From: Acetobacteraceae bacterium
GTDB taxonomy: Bacteria; Pseudomonadota; Alphaproteobacteria; Acetobacterales; Acetobacteraceae
DNA length: 64,000 nt
Assembly: GCA_035509315.1 (NCBI GenBank)
Contig: DATJLS010000060.1
Span: 15,118 to 79,117, forward strand
Direction of reading: 5' to 3'
Shown: positions 568 through 53,430 of the stretch, in pieces
How the letters are laid out: every line of letters begins with the position of its first letter
How positions within the stretch are numbered: the first letter of the stretch is position 1
Notes under the pieces: generated by a model
The model's input: the letters and a program-made list of their open reading frames with translations, nothing else
Told to the model about the DNA's origin: nothing
The model's database searches: none
Position numbers and translations under genes: made by a program

Positions 568-1677
568 ATGCGTTCCGGGCTGTTCATGATGCCGCTGCAT
601 CCGCCGCACCGGCCGCTTGCCGAGACGGTGGGCGAGGACGCCGACAAGATCGTGCTCGCCGAGCAGCTTGGCATGGACGAGGCTTGGGTCGGCGAGCATT
701 TCTCCGCCGGCTCCGAGCCGCTTGCCTCGCCGCTGATGTTCCTCGCCTCGCTCCTGCCGCGCACACGGCGCATCCGTTTCGGTACCGGCGTGATCGGACT
801 CGGCTATCACCATCCGGCGATGGTCGCGGCCGAAGTCGCCCAGTTCGATCATATGAGCCGTGGCCGGCTGATGTTCGGCATCGGTGCCGGCGGGCTCGCG
901 AGCGACGGCGAGCTCTTCGGCCATACGGACCTGAGGCTGCGCGGCGAGCGGATGCGCGAGGCAATCGACATGATCCTCGCCCTCTGGTCCGGCGATCCGC
1001 CTTACAGGCTGGAAGGGAAACACTGGCAGATCCGCCTCGAGAACGCGGTCATGCCCGAATATGGCGTGGGCTTCATCCAGAAACCCTACCAGAAGCCGCA
1101 TCCGCCGATTGCGCTCTCGGTGGTGGGCGCGAATTCCGTGGCGATGAAGGTGGCCGCACTCCGCCGCTGGATCGCCGTCAGCGCCAATTTCATCCCGACC
1201 TGGAGCCTGCAGACTCACTGGCCGACTTATCTCGAAGGCTGCGCCGAGGCGGGTTTTGCGCCGGACCCGGATGCCTGGCGCGTCGCGCGCAACGTGATCG
1301 TCGCGGATTCGGACGCGGAAGCGCGGGACTACGCCTTCGATCCCGAGGGCCCGAGCTGGCACTATTTCGATTATCTCTGGCAGCTCCTGCATCGCAGGGG
1401 CCTCGGCGCCGGAATGAAGCCCGATCCCTCGGTGCCGGACGATGCGGTGACACCCGCCATGCTGATTGCGGAAATGGTCATCCATGGCAGCCCGAAGACG
1501 GTCACGGAGAAGCTCTTGGCGCTCCGTCAGCGCATCGGCCCGTTCAACACGCTGCTGCTCGCCTCGCTCGACGGGTCGGGCCTCAACGCCGCCCGCGAGC
1601 GCCGCTCCCTCACCTTGATGGCGGAGGCGGTGCTGCCGGGCCTTCGCGCCGCGATCGGCGAAGCCGAAGCCGCATGA
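568..1677 (+). CDS. LLM-class (luciferase-like) flavin-dependent oxidoreductase
   Basis: ATG 568 follows GGGAAGGGAG. N-terminus FMMPLHPP...LAEQLGMDEAWVGEHF and 369-aa length fit luciferase-like monooxygenases. Confidence 0.8.
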   Translation: MRSGLFMMPLHPPHRPLAETVGEDADKIVLAEQLGMDEAWVGEHFSAGSEPLASPLMFLASLLPRTRRIRFGTGVIGLGYHHPAMVAAEVAQFDHMSRGRLMFGIGAGGLASDGELFGHTDLRLRGERMREAIDMILALWSGDPPYRLEGKHWQIRLENAVMPEYGVGFIQKPYQKPHPPIALSVVGANSVAMKVAALRRWIAVSANFIPTWSLQTHWPTYLEGCAEAGFAPDPDAWRVARNVIVADSDAEARDYAFDPEGPSWHYFDYLWQLLHRRGLGAGMKPDPSVPDDAVTPAMLIAEMVIHGSPKTVTEKLLALRQRIGPFNTLLLASLDGSGLNAARERRSLTLMAEAVLPGLRAAIGEAEAA

Positions 1678-1686
1678 ATTCAGCCC

Positions 1687-2352
1687 TCAAATCTGGACCA
1701 CCTCGTTGAGCGTCCAGCTCTGGTTCGGCGGGTTCTCGCCGATCCGCACCGTTTTGTCGTTGACGAAATTGTAGGGCGGAACCGGAAGATTGTAGGGCGC
1801 GGGCACGAATTTCCATACGCGCCCGGCAAGGTCGTATTTCGAGCCATGGCAGGGGCAGAGATAGCCGCCCGGCCAGTCCGCCACCGGCGTTGTTTGGCTC
1901 GGATTGGGCCAATAGCCCGGCAGGCAGCCGAGATGGGTGCAGATGCCAACCAGAACCGCATATTCCGGCTTGACCGAGCGGTGCCAGTTCTCCGCATAGG
2001 GCGGCTGCTGGTCGACCTTCGAGTTCGGGTCGCTGAGCCGGTCGATCATTGTCTTGTCCTGCAGCGTCTTGAGTGCTGCCGGCGTGCGGTTGACGATGAG
2101 GACGGGCTTCTCGCGCCACAGAACCACGATCTGCTGCCCGGGCTGGACATGGCTGAGATCCACATCGACCGGCGAGCCGGCCGCGATGGTATCGGCCGCC
2201 GGGTCCATCGAATCGATGAAGGGCCAGGCGACGGCACAGGCGCCGATGGCGGCGGTGGCAAGCGTGACGAGCGTGAGGAAGTCCCGGCGCGGCGGGCCTT
2301 CCGCCGCGTGGCCGCCGACGCCATTCGCCGTCGTTGCTTCCGATGCCGCCAT
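1687..2352 (-). CDS. Rieske iron-sulfur subunit of cytochrome bc1 type (PetA-like), orphan copy
   Basis: RRDFL Tat-type anchor and Rieske boxes CTHLGC and CPCHGSKYD. SD GAGGGA lies before ATG 2350-2352. No petB/petC downstream (convergent LLM gene instead). Confidence 0.85.
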   Translation of the reverse strand: MAASEATTANGVGGHAAEGPPRRDFLTLVTLATAAIGACAVAWPFIDSMDPAADTIAAGSPVDVDLSHVQPGQQIVVLWREKPVLIVNRTPAALKTLQDKTMIDRLSDPNSKVDQQPPYAENWHRSVKPEYAVLVGICTHLGCLPGYWPNPSQTTPVADWPGGYLCPCHGSKYDLAGRVWKFVPAPYNLPVPPYNFVNDKTVRIGENPPNQSWTLNEVVQI

Positions 2353-2484
2353 CGTTTCGTCCCTCTACGATTGAAGGCCCTCGGGCGCATTTCCCCCGGG
2401 GCTCGTTTCCCCGTTATCTAGCGCCCCCGCACGGGCCACACCATCCCCGGAACGCCTCCCGGATGCCCCGGGAACTTGGTCCCG

Positions 2485-2985
2485 TCATTCCAGCACGCGC
2501 TCGAGGCTCACCCACGTTTCCTCCGTGAATCCTTCATGGCAGTGCCTTGTCGTCTCGCGGAACCCGCAGGACGCGAAGAGGCGCCGATTGTCGGTGAGTG
2601 CGAGTCGCGTGCCGAGCTCCACCCGTCTGAGCCCGTGCCGCCGTGCCTCCACCCCGCCGGCCTCGACCAGCGCACGCCCGATCCCGCGCCGGCGCCAGGA
2701 AGGCGAGACCGCCAGCCGCCCGAGATGGAAACTCTCCCCGCGCACGTCCCAGAGAACGGCGCCGACGATCCGTCCCTCCGCTTCGGCGACCGCGCCTCCG
2801 CCCTCGGCAAGCCGGCGCGCCACGCTCTCCGCCGTCTCGCCCAGCGCCGAAGGTGGGGGGATAACGGCAAGCCCCGCAAAGGCGGAGCGGATCAGCACGG
2901 CGATCGCCGATGCGTCCTCGGTTTGCGCTGGCCGCAATCGAAAATCATGCAAGATCGATGGCTTCCCGCGTCTTTCTCGATTCAA
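2485..2985 (-). CDS. GNAT family N-acetyltransferase
   Basis: FRLRPAQTEDASAIAVLI start and acetyl-CoA pocket WRRRGIGRALV. Track start is TTG 2985; alternative TTG at 2952. Confidence 0.8.
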   Translation of the reverse strand: MNRERRGKPSILHDFRLRPAQTEDASAIAVLIRSAFAGLAVIPPPSALGETAESVARRLAEGGGAVAEAEGRIVGAVLWDVRGESFHLGRLAVSPSWRRRGIGRALVEAGGVEARRHGLRRVELGTRLALTDNRRLFASCGFRETTRHCHEGFTEETWVSLERVLE

Positions 2986-2994
2986 ATCTCAAGT

Positions 2995-3408
2995 TCAAAC
3001 CTCGAGCACGACATAATCGGCTTCCACCGTCACCGGGAAGGTCTCGGCCTGATAGGGCCCCTTTACCAGCGCCTCCCCCGGCTCGACCGAGACCGGATAG
3101 GTCCGCACGCGTAGGCGCCGCGGCTCGCACCAGGACTGTCCGGTCCTGATGTCGAACTCCCAGCCATGCCAGGGGCAGCGCAGCATCTCGCCCGGCCGCG
3201 TATAACGATAGACACCCGGCTCTTCCGAAAGCACGAGCCCCACCCGTTCGCCGAGGCAGAGGCTGCCGCCCTGGTGCGGGCAGCGGTTGAGAAGGGCGTA
3301 GAACGCCCCCCCGACATTGAAGACCCCGATCGATCGTCCCCCGACCGCGACGAGCTTGCGTCCGCCCGGCGGAATCTCCCCCACCGAGGCGACGACATGA
3401 CGCGTCAT
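2995..3408 (-). CDS. Small Rieske (2Fe-2S) domain protein
   Basis: Ligand boxes CPHQGG and CPWHGWEF. ATG 3406-3408 overlaps the upstream stop (ATGA). The 370-aa track ORF is an over-extension. Confidence 0.85.
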   Translation of the reverse strand: MTRHVVASVGEIPPGGRKLVAVGGRSIGVFNVGGAFYALLNRCPHQGGSLCLGERVGLVLSEEPGVYRYTRPGEMLRCPWHGWEFDIRTGQSWCEPRRLRVRTYPVSVEPGEALVKGPYQAETFPVTVEADYVVLEV

Positions 3409-4508
3409 GCGAGCCTGTAGGCCGCGCTTGCATTGCCGCGGAACACGGCGCGCGTCTCCGCTTCGTCGAGCGCGATTTTGAAGGCGAGCCGCGGATCGTC
3501 CATGTCCCAGTGGGGATAGTCGCTTGCGAACACCAGCCGGTCCCACCCGATCCAGTCGATCAGCGCGCGCAGGTCGCGCCGCTCCGCCGGCTCCTCGATT
3601 GGCTGCGTGGCGAACCAGACCTGCCTCCGGATATAGTGGGAGGGCGGATGCTTCACATGCGGCACCTCGCTTCGCATCCGCGCCCAATGCTGGTCGAGCC
3701 GCCAGCCGAGCGACGGCGCCCAGCCGAACCCGCCTTCGATCATCGCCACCTTCAGGCCTGGGAACGCCTCGAACACACCTTCGAGCACCAGGCTCGTGAG
3801 CAGCGGCTGCATGGCGAGCGCATCGCCGAAATGGTCCTCGAAATAGAAGGAGGGCCAGCCCGACGGGGTTTTCGCGATCCCGTTGCTGCCGCCGGTATGG
3901 ATGCCGATCGGCAGGCCCTGCCGCTCGGCCTCGGCGAAGATCGGCCAATAGCGCTTGCGCCCGAGCGGCTCGGTGGTGCGGGCGGAGATGAAGACGGAGA
4001 CGAAATCCCTTTGCCCCGCGCAACGCGCGATCTCCGCAACCGACGCCTCGGCGTCCTCGGCGGGGATGATGATCGAGGCCTTGAGCCGCGGCTCGGGCGC
4101 CGTCCATTCCGCCACCTGCCAGTCATTGAGCGCGGCGCAGAGCGCGGCCCCGAACGCCGGGTTGCGTTGGTCCTTCCCGCTTGGGATCAGCACCTGCAGG
4201 ATGCCCGTCTCGATGCCATACGGATCGAGATATTGGGCGCGCATGAAATCGAGGTCGGAGCCGGGCGGCCCGCCCGAAGGCGGCCAGGAATCGCGGCGCG
4301 AGAGCGCCGGCGTCGCCTTGGGCACCGCATAGCTCGCGACGAACGGGTTTCGCGTGCGCAGCCCATTCGTCGTGAGTTCCTCGCGCCAGCGCTGCGAGAG
4401 ATAGGGCAGCAGCGCCGTCTCCGAGCGCAGCATCGGGTGGATGTCGCAATCGACGATGCCGAGCCGCGTTTCGCTCTCCCGCGCACGCTCCAGCACTTGC
4501 TCGCTCAT
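3405..4508 (-). CDS. Amidohydrolase-2 family protein (ACMSD-like metal-dependent hydrolase/decarboxylase)
   Basis: VDCDIHP near the N-terminus and ASDYPHWD near the C-terminus. ATG 4506-4508 overlaps the stop of the upstream paralogue (ATGA). Confidence 0.8.
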   Translation of the reverse strand: MSEQVLERARESETRLGIVDCDIHPMLRSETALLPYLSQRWREELTTNGLRTRNPFVASYAVPKATPALSRRDSWPPSGGPPGSDLDFMRAQYLDPYGIETGILQVLIPSGKDQRNPAFGAALCAALNDWQVAEWTAPEPRLKASIIIPAEDAEASVAEIARCAGQRDFVSVFISARTTEPLGRKRYWPIFAEAERQGLPIGIHTGGSNGIAKTPSGWPSFYFEDHFGDALAMQPLLTSLVLEGVFEAFPGLKVAMIEGGFGWAPSLGWRLDQHWARMRSEVPHVKHPPSHYIRRQVWFATQPIEEPAERRDLRALIDWIGWDRLVFASDYPHWDMDDPRLAFKIALDEAETRAVFRGNASAAYRLA

Positions 4509-5671
4509 GGCGCAAAACCCTCGATCGGAATGGCCGGCGCGCGTGGCGGCACGGCGGGATGTCTGAGCCGGGGAAAGGTCTCCAGCGGGGTCTCGACGGC
4601 GATGCGGGGAAGAAGCCGTGCCGGCAGGCCGGCCGGCAGCACCGCCCCGCCGTCCCACTGCCAATGCGGGAAATCGGTCGAGAAAAGCAGCAGTCTCTCC
4701 GCCCCGATCTGCTCCATCACCCGCGCGAGATCCTCCGGCGCGGGCGGCGCGTCCGTGGGCTGCAATGTCACCCGCACATGCTCGCGCACGATCTCGGCCG
4801 GCGAGCGATCGACCCACGGCACCTCCGAGCGCAGCGCCCGCCATTCCTTGGTGGCGCGCCAGAGGAAGGCAGGCAGCCAGGTGAAGCCCGATTCGATCAG
4901 CACCACCCGCAAATCCGGAAACTTGGTGAAGACCCCTTCACCGATCAGGCTCAGGAGCTGGTGCTGAAAGATCACCGCCTGATCGACATAATCCTCGACC
5001 AGGTAGCTCGGCCAGCCGACATTGGTGATCGGGTTGTGGAAGTCGCTGCCCGCATGGATGCCGATCGGCAGGCGAAGCCGCGCCGCCGCGGCGTAGATCG
5101 GCCAGTGCGCGCGCCGGCCGAGCGGCATTTCGCCCCCGGCCAGCAGCAGCACGGCGACGAAGCGCGGATCGGCCGCGCAGCGCTCGATCTCGGCCACCGC
5201 GAGCTCCGCGCTGCGCGGGCTGACGAGGATCGAGGCGCGCAGAAGCGGCTCGCGGTCGAGCCATTCCGCCGCCACCCAGTCATTGACGGCGCGCGCGAGC
5301 GCCGCGCCCATATCCTCGCTGAACATCGCCGCCGCGCCGTGCAGACAATGGCAGATCGCGAGCCGCGTGTTCCAGGGCGCCAGCGCCTCCCGCCGCAGAA
5401 GATCGAGATCGCCGCCCGGCCTCCCGTCCGCTCCGCGCCACTCCGGCCGCGCCGAAAGCGCCGCGCCGGGCGGATAGCTCGCGAGCCCGAGCCCGTCGAT
5501 CCCGCGCGAGACCATCACCTCATGCCAGTGATCGTCGAGATAAGGGAGCAGCTCCGCCATCACCGGCGTGGGCGGATGAATATCGCAATCGATCGGCTTC
5601 AGCGCACGCAGCCTCGCGGCGCTTTCATCTGCCTGGTCCGAATCGTCCGCGTCTCGCTCCGGCGCGGTCAT
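4505..5671 (-). CDS. Amidohydrolase-2 family protein, paralogue of 3405-4508
   Basis: IDCDIHPP and STDFPHWQWD motifs. Start placed at ATG 5669-5671 (MTAPERD) inside the longer track ORF. Confidence 0.75.
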   Translation of the reverse strand: MTAPERDADDSDQADESAARLRALKPIDCDIHPPTPVMAELLPYLDDHWHEVMVSRGIDGLGLASYPPGAALSARPEWRGADGRPGGDLDLLRREALAPWNTRLAICHCLHGAAAMFSEDMGAALARAVNDWVAAEWLDREPLLRASILVSPRSAELAVAEIERCAADPRFVAVLLLAGGEMPLGRRAHWPIYAAAARLRLPIGIHAGSDFHNPITNVGWPSYLVEDYVDQAVIFQHQLLSLIGEGVFTKFPDLRVVLIESGFTWLPAFLWRATKEWRALRSEVPWVDRSPAEIVREHVRVTLQPTDAPPAPEDLARVMEQIGAERLLLFSTDFPHWQWDGGAVLPAGLPARLLPRIAVETPLETFPRLRHPAVPPRAPAIPIEGFAP

Positions 5672-6478
5672 GGCCGACTGTTTCCCCCAACCGCCCTTTG
5701 CGGGGCGTGAGAAGGAAGGGTGCCCGAGAGTGGGAACGGAGGCAATGGCTGAGGCGCCGGACACCCGGAACCGATTCTTCGGCCGGCTTTATCCCTGGGC
5801 GGGATTCCTCGACGGGATCCGCCGATAGGCCCGAAGCGTCCGGGCGCTCGCCGCCATTTCGGCTCTCCGGTCGCGCTCCGCGCCATTGATTACATTCGGG
5901 GTTGGTGACTGTCTGGGTTGGTGACTGTGCGCACGACCTGAATGTTGCTTCCGCAACATCGATCCCGCACCCTTTCGTCCTGATTCGCGACCGCAAGGCG
6001 CCGGCGAGCGGGCCTTCCGCCTTCTTTCTCCTCTCTTGCTCTTCTCTCGCGAACCGGCACGGATGGCTCCATGCTCCTCCCTTCGAGTATGTTTGCTGCA
6101 ATGAACCCGGGACGATCGCCGCAAGCGTTGCGGCTAGGTGCGCGGCAGGCTCCGCAGCGCCGGCGTCGCGTCTTCACCACCAGCCTGCAGCCGGGACCTG
6201 GAATCCTGCAATGTCCTGGATCGGTTTGGGACTCTATTCTTTTCGCCGAGGCGGCTCAGCTGTTCAAGGCCAGCTCTTGTCGGGATCAATTCGGATGGCG
6301 TTCAGAATGTGCTCGAAGCAAGCGACATTTTGCACGGATGGGTGCTCGCGCCCGGCAATTTCTGCCTCTCCGACAATCCGTTCTTCCTCCTCGCGTGCCG
6401 ATTATTCGCGTGGACGATGCTCGCAATCTATTTCGAGCCGTCTCTGATCTATCTCGTTCTTCTTCGGTGGCGATCACC

Positions 6479-7039
6479 ATGGCCCGGTGCGATGCGACCG
6501 ACACGAGGGCAGGGACAATCGGGCTCGCGGCGTTTGTATTCTTTCTCGGCGCATCAAGTCTCGCCTCGATGGGCGCGGTCGTCTTCGTCGGGGCGCGGCA
6601 TATTGCCGTTCTCACCTTCTGCCTTGTCGCGTGGTTTGCGCTTGGAATGGCGCAGCGGGCCGACACGCGTCGCAGGATGCTGAGATCGGCAGGACTGTAC
6701 ACTGTTTGCGCTCTAATCGTGCCGCTGAGCAACCCGCTGGGAATCTCGGTGTTCCTCTCGCCCACGCTCGCCGGATTGTTCTTCGTCCTCCTGGCGCCGC
6801 AGAGACGCCTCATTCACGCAGGGTCATCGGGCCCCACCCTTGTCGCCTTGGTTGGCGCTCATCTCGGGCTTGGCCTGATCACTGCGTTGGGTGACTTCAT
6901 CACTGTCCATAACCTCCGTTTTCAGTTCGTCAGCGCGGCGGATTTCGGTCGCAGTGTCGTGGGTCCTCTGTTCGGCCTGATCCTTCCCCCGGATCAGGGC
7001 CAGGGGAAACTGGAAATCTTCGGGTTAGGGTCGCGATGA
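6479..7039 (+). CDS. Hypothetical multi-pass membrane protein
   Basis: Several hydrophobic helices (GLAAFVFFLGASSLASMGAVVFV, IAVLTFCLVAWFALGM, GLFFVLLAP, LVALVGAHLGLGLITAL). Lower GC than flanks. ATG 6479 chosen inside a longer ORF. No family recognised. Confidence 0.4.
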   Translation: MARCDATDTRAGTIGLAAFVFFLGASSLASMGAVVFVGARHIAVLTFCLVAWFALGMAQRADTRRRMLRSAGLYTVCALIVPLSNPLGISVFLSPTLAGLFFVLLAPQRRLIHAGSSGPTLVALVGAHLGLGLITALGDFITVHNLRFQFVSAADFGRSVVGPLFGLILPPDQGQGKLEIFGLGSR

Positions 7040-7136
7040 GCGCCAGCGGGAAAGAGAGCTTCGCCGCCCGCTCGGGGAGACCTCTCTCTCTGACAGCCGG
7101 CGGCAAGGGAGCTTCGCCACGCTTCCGGAACGGATT

Positions 7137-8216
7137 ATGAATTTCCCCGCTCCAGTCCACCCCCCTGTGCCGCCTTCTGCTTTTCAGTCACGGGAATCTG
7201 GCGCAAGAAGTGCGTTGATGCCGTTCCGTGTTGCCGTATTGATCCCCTGCTATAACGAGGCCGTCACGATCGGGAAGGTCGTGGCGGATTTCCGCGCCGC
7301 CCTGCCGGAGGCGGCGATTTATGTCTTCGACAACAATTCCCGCGACGGCACGGCGGAAGCGGCGCTTCGTGCCGGTGCCCTGGTGCGGCGCGAGACCCTT
7401 CAGGGCAAGGGCCACGTCGTGCGCCGGATGTTCGCCGATATCGAGGCGGATGCCTATGTGTTGGTGGACGGTGACGGGACCTACGAAGCGGCCGCCTCGC
7501 CCCTTATGCTTCGTCTGCTGGTGGACGAGCGGCTCGACATGGTCACGGGTATGCGCACGGGTGAGGCGGCGGATTCTTTCCGTCGCGGGCATCGCCTGGG
7601 CAACCGGGTCCTGACCGGAATCGTTCGTCTTCTCTTCGGCCGTCGCACGAGCGACATGCTTTCCGGCTACCGTGCATTCTCCCGCCGATTCGTGAAATCC
7701 TTTCCGGCCCTGGTGGGCGGCTTCGAGACCGAGACCGAGTTCACTGTGCATGCCCTGGCACTGCAAATGCCGGTTGGCGAAGTAAAGACCGTCTATCGCG
7801 GGCGGCCCGCGGGATCGCAATCCAAGCTCAGCACCTGGTCCGACGGCGCCCGCATCCTCCGCACCATTCTGCTGCTCGTGAAAGAGGAAAAGCCATTCCT
7901 TCTCTTCTCGGCCATCGCCGCCCTGCTGTTCCTGGCCGGCCTCGCGTTCGGCATTCCCGTGGTGATCGAGTTCTGGGCAACAGGCCTGGTACGGCGCCTG
8001 CCAACCGCGGTGCTTGCTTCCGGGCTGATGGTGCTCGCGTTCCTCTCCTTCGCCTCAGGTGTCATTCTGGATTCGGTCGCCCGCGGCCGGCGCGAGTTCA
8101 AGCGTCTGGCTTACCTCGCCCATCCGGCCGTGACCGTCGACGGGCTGGCTGGCTTGCCGCCGCAGACATGCCGGCGCTCATCGTTTGGAAGCGGGAATGC
8201 ACCACCGCCGGAATAA
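7137..8216 (+). CDS. Glycosyltransferase family 2 protein with C-terminal membrane anchor
   Basis: VLIPCYNEAVTIGKVV, FDNNSRDGT and LVDGDGTY (GT-A fold, DxD), then two hydrophobic helices. Start may instead be ATG 7218 (MPFRV). Confidence 0.8.
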   Translation: MNFPAPVHPPVPPSAFQSRESGARSALMPFRVAVLIPCYNEAVTIGKVVADFRAALPEAAIYVFDNNSRDGTAEAALRAGALVRRETLQGKGHVVRRMFADIEADAYVLVDGDGTYEAAASPLMLRLLVDERLDMVTGMRTGEAADSFRRGHRLGNRVLTGIVRLLFGRRTSDMLSGYRAFSRRFVKSFPALVGGFETETEFTVHALALQMPVGEVKTVYRGRPAGSQSKLSTWSDGARILRTILLLVKEEKPFLLFSAIAALLFLAGLAFGIPVVIEFWATGLVRRLPTAVLASGLMVLAFLSFASGVILDSVARGRREFKRLAYLAHPAVTVDGLAGLPPQTCRRSSFGSGNAPPPE

Positions 8217-8264
8217 CCGCTTGAACGCGCGCGGAGGCTTTTTGGATTTGTTTGACGAGTATCT

Positions 8265-8495
8265 TCACGCCATCAGCCGATTGCGGCCAATCGTGCGGAT
8301 AGTTTTCTTAAGGAAATGAAATCGCTTCCGATTATATCCAAAAATTTGCGATATTTGCATTTGGTTCTGGTAGTTTTCCGTATGTCGAATTTCTGGTGAC
8401 CGAAGATACTGCTCCAAATCATCTGAATTTAAATCCTCTCTTAATTCCTGGATGGCCTCAAAACGCCTTTCCCCAAGAATAGACGGATGCCTCAA
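8265..8495 (-). other. AT-rich orphan ORF tail without usable start, abutting a MITE (possible gene remnant)
   Basis: Open frame ...RFEAIQELREDLNSDDLEQYLRS...GRNRLMA in a visibly AT-rich patch. Its only upstream continuation runs into the MITE at 8499. No SD-linked start seen. Confidence 0.2.
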
Positions 8496-8498
8496 TAA

Positions 8499-8790
8499 GA
8501 GACTGTTTGAGAATGCGCTGTGGTGAGTGGGTTCGTTCCAAGTTGGGGGCGCCGCAGGCGCCGGCCGGCGCGGCTTTCGAGAACCGGAGCGGAGCGGCCT
8601 TGAGATCAATATGGCTTCTGGCGGAGGCGGGGCACCCCACGAACGTGTTCGTGGGGACCCCGAGCGCAGCGATCCGCCAAAGCCCAAGGGGAAGTCATGA
8701 AATTGATCGCCAAAACAAAAGGGCCGTGAGCACCGGAAGCGCAGAAAGACGCGTCGGACGACCACCGCAGTCGCATTCTCAAACAGTCTC
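8499..8790. mobile_element. MITE family 1, copy a (TIR GAGACTGTTTGAGAATGCG, TAA target duplication) carrying a nested family-3 element
   Basis: Perfect terminal inverted repeats gagactgtttgagaatgcg / cgcattctcaaacagtctc flanked by TAA on both sides. Interior matches the 24708-24871 copy except for an insert at about 8602-8720. Confidence 0.85.
8604..8708. repeat. Repeat family 3 copy nested inside MITE 1a
   Basis: gatcaatatggcttc...gaagtcatgaaattgatc inverted ends with internal palindrome ccccacgaacgtgttcgtgggg. Absent from the otherwise collinear MITE copy at 24708-24871. Confidence 0.75.
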
Positions 8791-43349: not shown

Positions 43350-43426
43350 GCGCCCGTAGCTCAATTGGATAGAGCACCAGACTACGGATCTGGGGGTTGG
43401 GAGTTCGAATCTCTCCGGGCGCGCCA
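43350..43426 (+). tRNA. tRNA-Arg (anticodon ACG)
   Basis: Hand-folded cloverleaf: acceptor GCGCCCG/CGGGCGC, D arm GCTC-AATTGGATA-GAGC, anticodon arm CCAGA-CTACGGA-TCTGG, T arm GGGAG-TTCGAAT-CTCTC, encoded CCA. Confidence 0.9.
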
Positions 43427-43623
43427 ATCAAATCAATATCTTAGCCCCAAGACCAGTCATCCCAAATTTGATATTCTCAGCACTGTGTCAGCAAACTAAA
43501 CGCAGAATCCGTCTAACGAGTGAGGCATCGGAGTCATTTTCGCCCTTTCCTGGGTTGGTGGCGAGCGCACGCTTATTGCACAAAGTTCTTGATTTGTTCC
43601 TATCCGATCGGCACACTCTCCGC

Positions 43624-45917: not shown

Positions 45918-46124
45918 TCAAGCGGTTTTGAGGTTGGTTGCCGCGAGCTTGCCCTGCTGGCCGCGCTCGACATCGAAGCTGATCTTCTGGCCCTCGGTAA
46001 GGGTGCCGAGTCCGGCGCGCTCGACCGCCGAGATGTGGACGAAGACATCCTTCGAGCCGTCATCCGGCTGGATGAAGCCCTAGCCCTTCACGGGATTGAA
46101 CCATTTGACCGTGCCTTGCACCAT
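45918..46124 (-). pseudogene. Cold-shock protein (CspA family) gene with in-frame TAG at codon 15
   Basis: Reads [73 protein letters not shown]. The stop (46080-46082) replaces the conserved aromatic residue of KG[YF]GFI. Confidence 0.85.
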
Positions 46125-47432: not shown

Positions 47433-47633
47433 TCATGCTTCAGAGACGAAACGACGTTCCTGAATGGTCAGGCGCCCGGTGCCTTTCTCCCACCGCCGAG
47501 GATTGCTGCAGCCTGGGCAACTGCATACTTTCGGCTGCTCCCGGAATCGCGCCATCGCCTTCGGATCATGCCAGCAGGGGCAGCCCAGATCGCCGTAGTG
47601 CTGGTTGCGGTCTTCGCTCAGCCGCCTGACCAT
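47433..47633 (-). CDS. Hypothetical Cys-rich small protein (CPC...CSCPGC)
   Basis: MVRRLSEDRNQHYGDLGCPCWHDPKAMARFREQPKVCSCPGCSNPRRWEKGTGRLTIQERR. Resembles small phage/island proteins from memory. Start uncertain (the track ORF extends to 47735). Confidence 0.4.
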   Translation of the reverse strand: MVRRLSEDRNQHYGDLGCPCWHDPKAMARFREQPKVCSCPGCSNPRRWEKGTGRLTIQERRFVSEA

Positions 47634-47682
47634 GTGGCGTGTCGCCTGGTGCCGGCGATAAGAACGCGGTCTCAAAGACTGC

Positions 47683-47850
47683 TCACTCCTCGACCCCCTG
47701 TTCTCGCTTGCCGGGCGCAAGGTCTTGCCGTGCATGGCGGCGGTAGCTTCCGGGACCCTTCTGTGCCTTCACGATGCGCTGGCGGTAGCGCGGATCGCGC
47801 AATGCTTTGGCGAGGGGGTTGCGGGGCCTGAGCACGGGTGATTTGGGCAT
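47683..47850 (-). CDS. ArfA-like alternative ribosome-rescue factor homologue
   Basis: RNPLAKALRDPRYRQRIVKAQKGPGSYRR aligns by eye with E. coli ArfA [30 protein letters not shown]. The ATG lies 2 nt after the higA stop. Confidence 0.55.
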   Translation of the reverse strand: MPKSPVLRPRNPLAKALRDPRYRQRIVKAQKGPGSYRRHARQDLAPGKREQGVEE

Positions 47851-47852
47851 GG

Positions 47853-48221
47853 TCAGAGTGCTTTCTGGTAAGCCGACGAGCCGCACGCCGAGTCTGCTGG
47901 CGATGCGATCTGATCTGTCGAGCGCCGGACGTTCCGCGGGTGCACGTCACGCGTGATCTCCGGGCCGCGTGCAGCCAGTGTGACCGAAAGGTCGCAGGCG
48001 GCCTGGAGGTTGAGCCAGAACTCGGGCGTGGTGCCGAAATAGCGGCCAAGCCGGATCGCGGTATCGGCCGATACGGCGCGCGGCTTCTCGGCGCAGAGGA
48101 TGTTCCCGATCCGGGTGGCTGGCACATGCAGCGCCAGGGCCAACGCATTGGCGCTGAGCCCGAGCGGCTTGATGAACTCCTCACGGAGTACCTCGCCGGG
48201 GTGAGTATGAAAGCGCGGCAT
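47853..48221 (-). CDS. higA: HigA-family antitoxin (XRE HTH)
   Basis: HPGEVLREEFIKPLGLSANALALALHVPATRIGNI...AIRLGRYFGTTPEFWLNLQAACDL. ATG 48219-48221 overlaps the stop of the higB remnant. Confidence 0.8.
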   Translation of the reverse strand: MPRFHTHPGEVLREEFIKPLGLSANALALALHVPATRIGNILCAEKPRAVSADTAIRLGRYFGTTPEFWLNLQAACDLSVTLAARGPEITRDVHPRNVRRSTDQIASPADSACGSSAYQKAL

Positions 48222-48343
48222 CACGGTCTCCTCAGTGAGGGTCGACATATCTCCACCTCATGGGCGCCTTCGTTCCACACAAAGCAGATACGCCACAGGT
48301 CGTCGATCCGGACACTATGCTGGTTCGCGCGGTCGCCCATTGC
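48221..48343 (-). pseudogene. higB toxin remnant (C-terminal ~40 codons only, with a 1-nt insertion near the end)
   Basis: GDRANQHSVRIDDLWRICFVWNEGAHEVEI matches the HigB/RelE C-terminus. Deleting one A in gagatAtgtcgac gives EIVDPH-TGA, followed by GGAGA 6 nt before the higA ATG. Confidence 0.7.
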
Positions 48344-49375
48344 CTGATGAGCCGTGGCGAGCGCCTCCCGCCGCGCATTGAGAACTTCCAGCGCCAAGGC
48401 GCGCAGGTGCAGCCGGCGGGGCTCACGGTTCTTCGTCATCTGGCGCGGCTGGCGCCACTCAGCCGCTGTCAAATCCAGGTGAGACCGCTCAAGCCGAACG
48501 GCATCGCCTCGCCGGCATGGGACGGCAATCAGGAATCGGGCGAGATCGCACCAGATTGGCTCAGCCTTGGCGTCCACCTTCCAGAGCCGCGCGAGCGCGG
48601 GCAATGTCAGATAGTGCGCGCATTGGGGAGGGGTCTTTGGCCTGCGGGCTCGGAAAATCTGGGCGCAAGGATTGGCCGGGACGTCGCCTGCGTCGTGACA
48701 CCAATCAAAAAAGCGTGATAGCGTTCCCAATCGGGTCCGCAGGTTGCTGACCCCGTGCATCGAGCGCGGCCGGCGAATGTCGGCTTCTCCGAGATCTCCG
48801 GCCGCCTTTTCCGTCGCATTGATGGCAGCGAGCGTGAGTCGCACCTGGACTGCTTCTTGGGCCCCATAGCGGGCTGAGAGACTGTTTGAGAATGCGCTGT
48901 GATGAGTCGGTTCGTTCCAAGTTGGGGGCGCCGCAGGCGCCGGACGACCACCACAGTCGCATTCTCAAACAGTCTCTGAGAGCGTGCCGGCGCCACCGCG
49001 CAGTCTGGGCCGGCGCTCAAGTGTCTTCTCGCAGTCCTGGACAAGCCGGTCGAGAATCGCCCTCTTCTTCCGTTCAGCCTTGGCTTCCTTCTCCGCCGCG
49101 AGGTCCTTGCCGCCTCTCACGTCCCCCCCCTTGAGGCACCTGGCCTCGGTACGGGCATCGCGGGCGAATGGCTCGCAGGCGCGCCAATTATCACCGTGCG
49201 ACTCGACCGGCGCTTTTTTCGTCCGCGGATCAATCCCGCGCGGGCGATCGTCGAAGACCCAGGCCATGCCGGTCGGGTTCACGATCGGCGCGAGCCCGAG
49301 GCAGTCTTTGTCGCGGTTGACATGACGCTGACCAGCAGCGCGTTGCCGCCATGCCGATTCCACAGTGCTCTTCAT
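48344..49375 (-). pseudogene. Tyrosine integrase, interrupted by a MITE and truncated within the catalytic domain
   Basis: N-terminal arm-type segment (48980-49375) and core/box-I segment (LIAVPCRRGDAVRLE...TKNREPRRLHL) are separated by the MITE at 48878-48976. The frame then runs straight into higB sequence. Confidence 0.75.
48878..48976. mobile_element. MITE family 1, copy c (99 bp, TGA target duplication) inside the integrase gene
   Basis: TIRs gagactgtttgagaatgcg / cgcattctcaaacagtctc are flanked by TGA. Removing 102 bp (element plus one TGA) rejoins ...GAGTLS to ARYGAQEAVQVRLTL... in frame. Confidence 0.9.
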
Positions 49376-49628: not shown

Positions 49629-49674
49629 ACCACGGATCCGAGGGTCGGGAACGCGAATCTTCCCGGACGCGCCA
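49629..49674 (+). repeat. attR-like degenerate copy of the tRNA-Arg 3' half
   Basis: accacggatccgagggtcgggaacgcgaatcttcccggacgcgcca versus tRNA 43381-43426: about 37 of 46 positions identical by hand alignment. The T-arm pairing GGGAA/TTCCC is preserved. Confidence 0.7.
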
Positions 49675-51738: not shown

Positions 51739-53430
51739 ATGAGGCGTAACATCCTTCACCTGCTGGCCGCTTCGATCCTCGCCTGGCTTGCCGTGCCCGG
51801 GCCTGCGAGAGCCGCCGATCGAGCGAAGGACCAGCCGTTCCTGCTCTCCATGCCGGATCTCTCGAGCCCGCGCGCAACGATCGCCGCGTTGCGCACCAAC
51901 ACCGAGAGCGCCTTCAAGGATCTCTTGGCGCACGGCCTGACCTGGAAGCAGCGCCCCGCCGTGCTCAGAATGATCGCGACATTCGACATCGGGAACTTGC
52001 CGTCACCGCGCCAGACCATGGCAGCCGTGACCTCTGCCGCCGAGCTGGCCTTCGTGCTCGAGAAACTTCCGCAGGGCAGATTGGCCAACGCGCCTGGCCT
52101 CGCCGAGGTCCGGCGAGACCATATCGCCCAGTGGCGCGTGCCAGGAACGCCGATCGTCCTCATGAAGATCCCGAGCGGGCCACGCGCCGGTGATTTCGTC
52201 TTCTCGAACGGAACGGAAGGGATGGCCGGCAGGCTTTACCAGGCCACGAAGCAGGAGATCGGCCATGGCGGCGAATATCTCACGCCTGTCGACGCATGGA
52301 GCTATTCTCCCGGACCGCTCATTCCCCGATCGCTGATCCGGGCGCTTCCGCCTCCCTTGTTGCAGCCGGTGCTGGGCCAGGCCGTCTGGCAGTGGATCGG
52401 GCTTGTCCTGCTCGCGCTCGTCTCGCTCGCCGTCATGGTCCGGATCGCGCTCTGGGGGATTCGTCATGACAATCGTGAAACCCGGGTGATCCGGCGCTAC
52501 GGCCAGATCCTCGCGCCCGTCGCGACCTGCGCGATCGGCGCCGTGATGCTCCTTCTCTCCTTCTACGGCCTGAAAATCTGGGGCGACACGCTGGAAACCC
52601 TGATCACGCTTGTGAACCTGGTATTCTACGTCAGCATCGCCTGGCTCGCGGTCGCGGCGATCCGCCGCGCCCAGGATGGGATGATCGCGTCCCTGGGCGT
52701 GCGCAGCACCAGCATCGACGGCCAGCTCATCAATGTCGTCGGAACTCTGATCAATATCGCCGTCGTCCTCTTCGCGATGTTCTTCATTGCCGATTTCATC
52801 GGCGTTCCCCTCGGTCCGCTGCTCGCCGGCCTCGGAATCGGCGGCCTCGCGGTCGCGCTCGCGGTGCGCCCCACCCTGGAGAACCTGATTGGCGGGCTGA
52901 CGCTGTTCGCCGACCGTCCCGTCCATGTCGGCGATTATTGCCAGATCGGCGAGGAGATGGGGGCGGTGGAGGAGATCGGCCTCAGAACGACCAAGATCCG
53001 TCGCGTCGATGACGTGCTGGTCACCATCCCGAATGCCGAGATGGCTCAGATCCGGATCATCAACGTCGCCCGCCGCCGCAAGTTCCTGTTCAATCCGATC
53101 CTCGGATTCCGCTACGAGACGACCGCACGGCAGCTCAAGGAGATCGAGGCCGGCATTCTCGGGATGCTCGCCCGCCATCCCCGGGTGATCGATGAGGGGG
53201 GTCGGGTGCGTCTTGTGGGATTCGGCGATTTTTCCGTCAATCTCGAGATCTTCGCCTATCTCGATGTGACACGGGTTGCCGATTTCGCGGAGGTGCGCGA
53301 GGAGCTCAACTTCCTGATCCTGGAGATCGTGAAGGCGGCCGGCGTTTCCTTTGCGTTCCCGTCACAAACAAACTATCTCGCGCGTGACACACTTCCGGAC
53401 GGACCGGGCATGGCAGAAGGCAAGGGCTAG
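51739..53430 (+). CDS. Mechanosensitive ion channel (MscS family) with large N-terminal periplasmic domain
   Basis: Signal peptide and TM helices, then LENLIGGLTLFADRPVHVGDYCQIG...GAVEEIGLRTTKIRRVDDVLVTIPN, the MscS beta-domain signature. Confidence 0.85.
   Translation: MRRNILHLLAASILAWLAVPGPARAADRAKDQPFLLSMPDLSSPRATIAALRTNTESAFKDLLAHGLTWKQRPAVLRMIATFDIGNLPSPRQTMAAVTSAAELAFVLEKLPQGRLANAPGLAEVRRDHIAQWRVPGTPIVLMKIPSGPRAGDFVFSNGTEGMAGRLYQATKQEIGHGGEYLTPVDAWSYSPGPLIPRSLIRALPPPLLQPVLGQAVWQWIGLVLLALVSLAVMVRIALWGIRHDNRETRVIRRYGQILAPVATCAIGAVMLLLSFYGLKIWGDTLETLITLVNLVFYVSIAWLAVAAIRRAQDGMIASLGVRSTSIDGQLINVVGTLINIAVVLFAMFFIADFIGVPLGPLLAGLGIGGLAVALAVRPTLENLIGGLTLFADRPVHVGDYCQIGEEMGAVEEIGLRTTKIRRVDDVLVTIPNAEMAQIRIINVARRRKFLFNPILGFRYETTARQLKEIEAGILGMLARHPRVIDEGGRVRLVGFGDFSVNLEIFAYLDVTRVADFAEVREELNFLILEIVKAAGVSFAFPSQTNYLARDTLPDGPGMAEGKG

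Follow-up and report, generated by a model that had tools for sequence, protein, structure and literature searches.

A candidate ribosome-rescue gene coupled to a toxin-antitoxin (TA) operon was analysed in a 64,000-nucleotide (nt) stretch of DNA from an uncultured member of the Acetobacteraceae, hereafter referred to as the window. The locus is on the minus strand at 47433-48844, as delimited from the open reading frame (ORF) map and the sequence, and its central element is an ORF of 55 amino acids (aa) at 47850..47683, the ATG of which lies 2 nt after the TGA stop codon of a higA antitoxin gene. The analysis gives about an even chance to the reading that this ORF is a selectively maintained gene of the ArfA (alternative ribosome rescue factor) family on mobile DNA, which forms the last cistron of type II, mRNA-cleaving TA operons and is translationally coupled to the antitoxin. 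The wider proposal of a three-part module is more tentative and is held at somewhat below even; it would consist of an mRNA-cleaving toxin, its antitoxin and a dedicated ArfA-type rescue factor whose synthesis would depend on antitoxin translation by way of a TGA-NN-ATG junction, so that a single operon would encode the means both of stalling ribosomes and of releasing them.

The assignment to the ArfA family is supported by several comparisons. The 55-aa product scored 32.9 bits against the Pfam ArfA family PF03889 (gathering score 25.5, E = 4.4e-8), and residues 11-42 were aligned to positions 12-43 of the 44 profile positions; the other two TA-linked copies, a paralogue in the same genome and a copy in a congener, scored 28.3 and 32.1 bits, respectively. 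BLASTP comparison with enterobacterial ArfA gave 14 identities over a 28-residue core (50%, E = 5e-9), including the DP, RQR, K, KG, GSY and R residues. A profile of the alphaproteobacterial homologues also matched the E. coli ArfA chains in the ribosome-ArfA-RF2 (release factor 2) structures (5U4I and 5MDV) with E = 1e-10, over ArfA residues ~12-49. The signature N-x-[LI]-x3-L-x-DP-x-[FY]-RQR-x-x-K-x2-KG-x-GSY-x-R is kept in the 55-aa ORF, and its basic tail (K28, K31, R37, R38, H39, R41, K48 and R49) extends past the equivalent of Asn47 in E. coli ArfA. ArfA is disordered off the ribosome, and the proline of the Asp-Pro pair of the E. coli protein packs against A1492/A1493 of the decoding centre. 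The core motifs contact both the ribosome and RF2, and Asn47 marks the end of the shortest active form of E. coli ArfA (PMC5378476). These comparisons indicate that the 55-aa ORF is a genuine member of the ArfA family. An earlier note on this DNA had placed the start of the ORF 2 nt past the higA stop, had called the product ArfA-like on account of a KGKGSY-type motif and had proposed the PF03889 search; both the junction and the family membership are borne out here. One member of the same subclade is already labelled as 'alternative ribosome rescue factor ArfA, partial' by NCBI, so that the novelty is in the placement of the gene and not in its identity.

The ratio of nonsynonymous to synonymous substitution rates (dN/dS) between the two ArfA-like copies of the source genome was 0.12 at a dS of 0.70, and the ratio was 0.33 against the copy of the congener; the dS values across copies ranged from 0.6 to 0.8. 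These low ratios indicate that the ORF is a protein-coding gene which has been under long-lasting selection, in both of the TA contexts.

The linkage to an antitoxin was found at three loci. The second ArfA-like copy of the source genome is located on another contig (C7) and encodes a protein with 84% identity; it starts 2 nt after the stop codon of an MqsA-like/helix-turn-helix (HTH) antitoxin gene, which itself follows a BrnT toxin gene (PF04365, 75.4 bits), and the same BrnT/MqsA-like/ArfA-like arrangement was also present in three metagenome samples. The third locus is in a congener genome, where an intact HigB (PF05015, 69.5 bits) and HigA are followed 2 nt later by an ArfA-like gene of 76 aa, and a HicAB pair adjoins. 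The TGA-NN-ATG junction between antitoxin and ArfA-like gene is thus seen in 3/3 subclade loci with known upstream sequence. A fourth member of the subclade has its upstream part beyond the contig end, and a search with the junction pattern in its genome, that of the third ArfA-like-positive congener, found no contig carrying the missing part. The three linked antitoxins are non-orthologous, namely the orphan HigA of the window, the MqsA-like/HTH protein of another family, and the HigA of the congener. At the DNA level the loci resemble one another only in the ORF and in the ~15 nt before it, a stretch made up of the last antitoxin codons, the TGA and both spacer bases (z 2.9-4.8). Wider synteny was considered and rejected; the more distal flanks on both sides and the wider contexts are unrelated.

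The window HigA (48221..47853, 122 aa) is intact and belongs to the TIGR02607 equivalog (95.5 bits, cut-off 47.7, E = 1.2e-27). It shares only 44% identity with the HigA of the congener, and 69% with a plasmid-borne HigA of Azospirillum lipoferum, the gene of which has no ArfA downstream. A C-terminal extension of 24 residues was observed in the window HigA (VRRSTDQIASPADSACGSSAYQKAL, 47853-47925); the 69%-identical Azospirillum relative ends 24 residues sooner. The ArfA-linked HigA of the congener also carries an extra C-terminal tail of ~14 residues, which is missing from the non-linked relatives.

ArfA-family genes are rare in this part of the bacterial tree. PF03889 was detected in 10 of the 401 sampled Alphaproteobacteria, in 3 of 401 Acetobacteraceae, and in 3 of the 12 genomes of the genus. 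The control set comprised ten sites in other Alphaproteobacteria and one more in the family, together with the closest metagenomic relatives, a Bauldia gene, three further relatives, and 30 canonical loci of Gamma- and Betaproteobacteria. The layout behind an antitoxin was found in none of these ~47 other ArfA-family genes or loci, as compared with 3/3 in the TA-linked subclade (Fisher p = 5e-5, a value that ignores the kinship among the three). The closest metagenomic relatives are stand-alone chromosomal genes between pckA-like and folC/accD/trpA genes, and the Bauldia gene is located between def-fmt and rmuC. In the canonical loci the gene lies at least ~50 nt behind a zntR-like or arsC-like gene, and the products mostly have hydrophobic tails. 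No further TA-linked member of the subclade was found in the plasmid collection (tblastn), the phage collection or the viral contigs, and scans of genome and metagenome contigs returned only the loci already known and distant stand-alone genes.

The expression signals also suggest coupling to the antitoxin. As read from the sequence, a convincing Shine-Dalgarno sequence is missing at all three ArfA-like starts, whereas higA (GGAG) and the downstream Cys-rich gene (GAGGAG) each have one. The missing signal points to translation by termination-reinitiation of an ArfA-like gene that is co-operonic with higA. The E. coli arfA gene is typically controlled through a hairpin inside the ORF and a non-stop message, and its active product lacks the hydrophobic C-terminal extension, although such control is not typical of every family member. 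The predicted fold of 47600-47790 was no better than that of shuffled sequences (z = -0.57), so that no hairpin of the E. coli type was detected there. The ORF ends in ...GVEE and an ordinary stop codon, and the end is acidic, with no hydrophobic C-terminal extension. The sequence thus gives no sign of RNase III, non-stop or transfer-messenger RNA (tmRNA) control, and the only visible control is the coupling to the antitoxin.

The rescue repertoire of the source genome includes a two-piece tmRNA and two full-length RF-1-domain genes (RF1 and RF2); no RF-1-domain gene of ArfB size was found in it. Of the 13 alphaproteobacterial genomes with an ArfA-like gene (the source genome and 12 others), a single one has ArfB, compared with 13 of the 28 sampled negatives (Fisher p = 0.015). 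This complementarity provides indirect evidence that these small genes encode working rescue factors. A previous survey found arfB in 85% of Alphaproteobacteria and arfA in none of 2,376 (PMC11633108), and a review restricts ArfA to part of the Beta- and Gammaproteobacteria (PMC8874680). Although the reviews and the 15,000-genome survey list no ArfA for the class, the present data reveal members of the family in Alphaproteobacteria as well as in alphaproteobacterial phages, mostly in the absence of ArfB.

A mechanism for the proposed module can be outlined on the basis of these features. HigB-type toxins cut the A-site codon and thereby generate non-stop complexes (PMC8874680, PMC8012679). Cleavage by HigB or BrnT would leave ribosomes held at the 3' end of stop-less messages; BrnT is an RNase as well. 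The ArfA-like protein would then occupy the emptied mRNA channel and bring in RF2, which would lead to peptide release in the manner of E. coli ArfA. With no ribosome-binding site of its own, the ArfA-like protein would be made only during translation of the antitoxin, and when the antitoxin is consumed and the TA operon is de-repressed, the supply of rescue factor would track the toxin activity. The coupling to the antitoxin would in this way take the place of the hairpin/non-stop control by which E. coli arfA senses tmRNA. In a bolder version of the model, the toxin could cut the message of its own operon and so do what RNase III does at E. coli arfA; truncation beyond about codon 44 would then be expected to leave an active product, by analogy with E. 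coli ArfA truncated at Asn47.

Several observations weigh against this reading. The TA-linked subclade comprises only four distinct proteins from a single genus of Acetobacteraceae, known from uncultured wetland bacteria, and the common junction may stem from one ancestral fusion followed by upstream recombination. Both an ArfA-like gene and ArfB are missing from six of the 12 genomes of the genus, which implies that a backup factor is dispensable. A scan of the window operon found no promoter-like site, and no RNA sequencing run was found with the region, which was contained only in wetland DNA metagenomes. BrnT is not known to require the ribosome. The 55-aa protein has a Lys at the position aligned with Ala18 of E. 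coli ArfA, where the substitution A18T blocks RF2 activation. ArfA-like genes also occur in phages and in phage-like arrays with no TA genes nearby. Moreover, the window copy has neither a working toxin nor the original upstream region, and for this reason it is not a recovery arm for its own toxin; it might at best be a leftover or a free-standing backup. The earlier note had proposed a built-in recovery arm. Of this proposal the ArfA membership, the co-operonic arrangement and the recurrence of the linkage hold up, whereas the linkage was found in one genus only and the toxin of the window does not function. The survey of ArfA-like genes near higBA that it called for showed recurrence at the intact HigB-HigA pair of the congener and at the BrnT pair of the same genome, within that genus only.

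The main rival explanation is that the gene is a general backup factor which replaces the missing ArfB cell-wide, and that autoregulated TA operons on mobile islands serve merely as a platform of steady low expression, for a gene that has neither promoter nor ribosome-binding site, with no specific link to the toxin. This is considered possible, although rather unlikely. It agrees with the source genome having no ArfB and with the near mutual exclusion of ArfA-like genes and ArfB in Alphaproteobacteria, with the window copy staying intact in the absence of a toxin, and with the fact that most ArfA-like genes are stand-alone housekeeping genes. However, any operon could serve as such a platform, whereas the three known contexts are without exception TA operons for mRNA cleavage, in which the gene follows a non-orthologous antitoxin at the same 2-nt distance; such TA loci are also few in the genome, where only one HigA and two BrnT were found.

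The other explanations are less likely. The gene might serve the self-interest of a mobile element or phage, keeping ribosomes at work against RNase toxins of the host or of rivals, such as those of abortive infection or addiction modules, and together with an orphan antitoxin it would form an anti-addiction kit. The window copy does lie in an integrase-bearing island beside a small protein of phage type, its HigA is an orphan, and ArfA-family genes are found in phages (in the Citromicrobium phage near ardA) and in phage-like arrays of small genes; nevertheless, two of the three TA-linked copies have intact toxins of their own, which fits a self-contained module better, and no member of the subclade was found in the phage, plasmid and viral-contig collections, so that this explanation is regarded as improbable. 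Still further down the scale, and very improbable, is an antitoxin partner of the chaperone type, in which the small basic protein would bind the C-terminal extension of the antitoxin and control its stability or DNA binding. The extensions on both ArfA-linked HigA proteins (24 and ~14 residues), which non-linked relatives lack, would suit such a role, and the order of toxin, antitoxin and third gene recalls the HigBA-chaperone systems. The MqsA-like antitoxin of the BrnT locus has no obvious extension, however, and the protein shows no SecB similarity and retains the core motifs through which ArfA touches the ribosome and RF2 (PMC5378476). The least credible explanation is a decaying or non-functional ORF that has survived by chance in a dying island. 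Although the integrase and higB of the island are broken and a 55-codon ORF can persist by luck, decay conflicts with the strong purifying selection described above and with the occurrence of the same protein beside intact partners in several metagenome samples.

The layout of the window locus agrees with a decayed TA operon. From upstream to downstream on the minus strand are an integrase fragment (48365..48844), a HigB toxin remnant (48221..48355), the higA gene (47853..48221), the ArfA-family gene (47683..47850) and a gene for a Cys-rich small protein (47433..47675). The order of higB remnant, higA, 55-aa ORF and CPC/CSCPGC protein given in the earlier note is therefore correct for all four elements. 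The ORF at 48844..48221 is a chimera. Its residues 31-160 correspond to positions 225-355 of the 611 in the integrase family phrog_1 (E = 4.7e-15, with a further weak match to XerC), so that the integrase, encoded by the 5' part of the ORF, is truncated at its C-terminal end. Residues 164-199 match the C-terminal end of toxins of the RelE/HigB type (phrog_3066, positions 52-88 of 94, E = 8e-7), and this part continues the reading frame of the integrase fragment. Compared with intact HigB proteins in an alignment, the remnant, a C-terminal third, lacks ~54 N-terminal residues and ends in EICRPSLRRP in place of EIVD(Y/P)H, which indicates a late frameshift. The 1-nt overlap of higB remnant and higA that had been reported is present, but it is a by-product of this frameshift; the ancestral arrangement was the higB stop, GGAG, and then the higA ATG. 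The integrase gene was fused to the last third of higB by a deletion, which inactivated the toxin and took away the part of the operon upstream of it, probably with the promoter. A six-frame scan of the whole genome revealed no second HigB or HigA, and the window HigA is therefore a true orphan antitoxin. None of the three proteins tested matched the PADLOC defence models.

The locus lies within a decayed island. A tRNA-Arg(ACG) gene on the plus strand at 43350..43426 (ARAGORN; Rfam RF00005, 67 bits) marks its left border and integration site, and a degenerate direct repeat of the tRNA 3' half at 49629..49674, also on the plus strand, marks the right border (~80% identity over ~46 nt with 43375-43430 in a pairwise alignment). 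The G+C content falls directly past the tRNA-Arg gene and is patchy over the island. An ORF within 45918-46124 ends in ...MVQGTVKWFNPVKG at 46080, which fits a cspA-type gene inactivated by one stop codon. The region of the second copy (770-8543 of a sequence that covers the same region as contig C7) is a dense TA island with two BrnT pairs, a TumE/HTH pair and a ParE-like/HTH pair, and it directly follows a gene with a weak match to a phage tape-measure protein (PhageMin_Tail).

The Cys-rich ORF (CPC...CSCPGC) is a conserved gene with 35 close metagenomic relatives of 76-91 aa and 59-84% identity. Its start is most likely the TTG at 47675, preceded by GAGGAG, which gives a protein of 80 aa, and not the ATG inside the ArfA-like gene. 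The protein matched phrog_4499 (E = 1.3e-6), with homologues in Rhizobium and Ochrobactrum phages. The relatives examined lie in early regions of prophage type, among MT-A70, ParB-like and replication genes, with neither HigA nor ArfA beside them; the gene is also missing at the other two ArfA-like loci. The Cys-rich protein was therefore rejected as a part of the module. The earlier note had tied it to the higA/ArfA-like operon; the gene is real, but it is a prophage-type neighbour and not a partner. The homologue of Rhizobium phage RHph_TM30 (1474-1755) is found in the phage tRNA gene cluster between endonuclease genes and has the conserved pattern C...CxCxxC-[GS]NPRR...TIQERRF.

Other ArfA-like sequences were noted in different settings. 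Gene product gp10 of the Citromicrobium phage vB_CbaS-RXM (2486-2668) is annotated as an ArfA homologue, and its gene is ~800 nt downstream of the anti-restriction gene ardA, a proximity that hints at a role of the ArfA family in phage-host conflict. An ArfA-like stretch in Roseobacter phage CRP-212 (2501-2608; 56% identity over 36 residues, E = 6e-5) is inside the C-terminal part of gp38, a large protein annotated as hypothetical and of virion type, beside structural genes, and it was left out of the evidence. In an alphaproteobacterial genus represented by two genomes, a stand-alone ArfA-like gene is immediately preceded by a gene for a multi-pass membrane protein of ~390 residues, which by eye we take to be an MscS-type channel. 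In E. coli, arfA neighbours mscL. A gene of the MscS family is also present in the window at 51739-53430, close to the island but not within it.

Recovery from HigB/RelE-type stalling has so far been ascribed to the general rescue systems of the cell. If the proposed module is real, it would represent a third functional class of TA accessory gene, beside chaperones and regulators, and would provide a direct handle on how cells exit from toxin-induced arrest. The full-text literature searched did not yield any account of a TA operon that contains an ArfA gene, in agreement with the earlier note, whose author had not seen it described as a system. The practical weight of the module is limited, since the linked form is so far found only in a few uncultured wetland bacteria.

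Comparison with known systems showed both similarities and differences. Like HigBA type II modules, the window locus once had the toxin first and then an HTH antitoxin, and its HigA is a proper family member; it differs from them in having no intact HigB upstream of higA. The closest HigBA relatives are plasmid pairs of Azospirillum, Rhodovastum and Methylobacterium, which have no third gene, whereas the window has one 2 nt after a tailed HigA. E. coli ArfA (YhdL) has the same PF03889 signature and a basic tail, and RF2 is also available in the source genome; however, the window gene has none of the hairpin, non-stop mRNA and hydrophobic extension of the E. coli gene, which stands alone, whereas the window gene is coupled to an antitoxin gene in an alphaproteobacterial host. 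The phage ArfA homologues, such as that of the Citromicrobium phage, are likewise on mobile alphaproteobacterial DNA and share the short form and the ordinary stop codon, but they have no annotated TA neighbours and show only ~50% core identity to the window gene. Three-gene TA systems are known from Mycobacterium tuberculosis, where the SecB-like chaperone of the HigB-HigA-chaperone system binds a C-terminal extension of the antitoxin. As in such toxin-antitoxin-chaperone systems, the third gene here is directly downstream of the antitoxin gene (with a 2-nt gap at three loci) and the HigA has a C-terminal extension; whereas their third gene encodes a SecB-like chaperone, the one described here belongs to the ArfA family, and its predicted target is the stalled ribosome and not the antitoxin.

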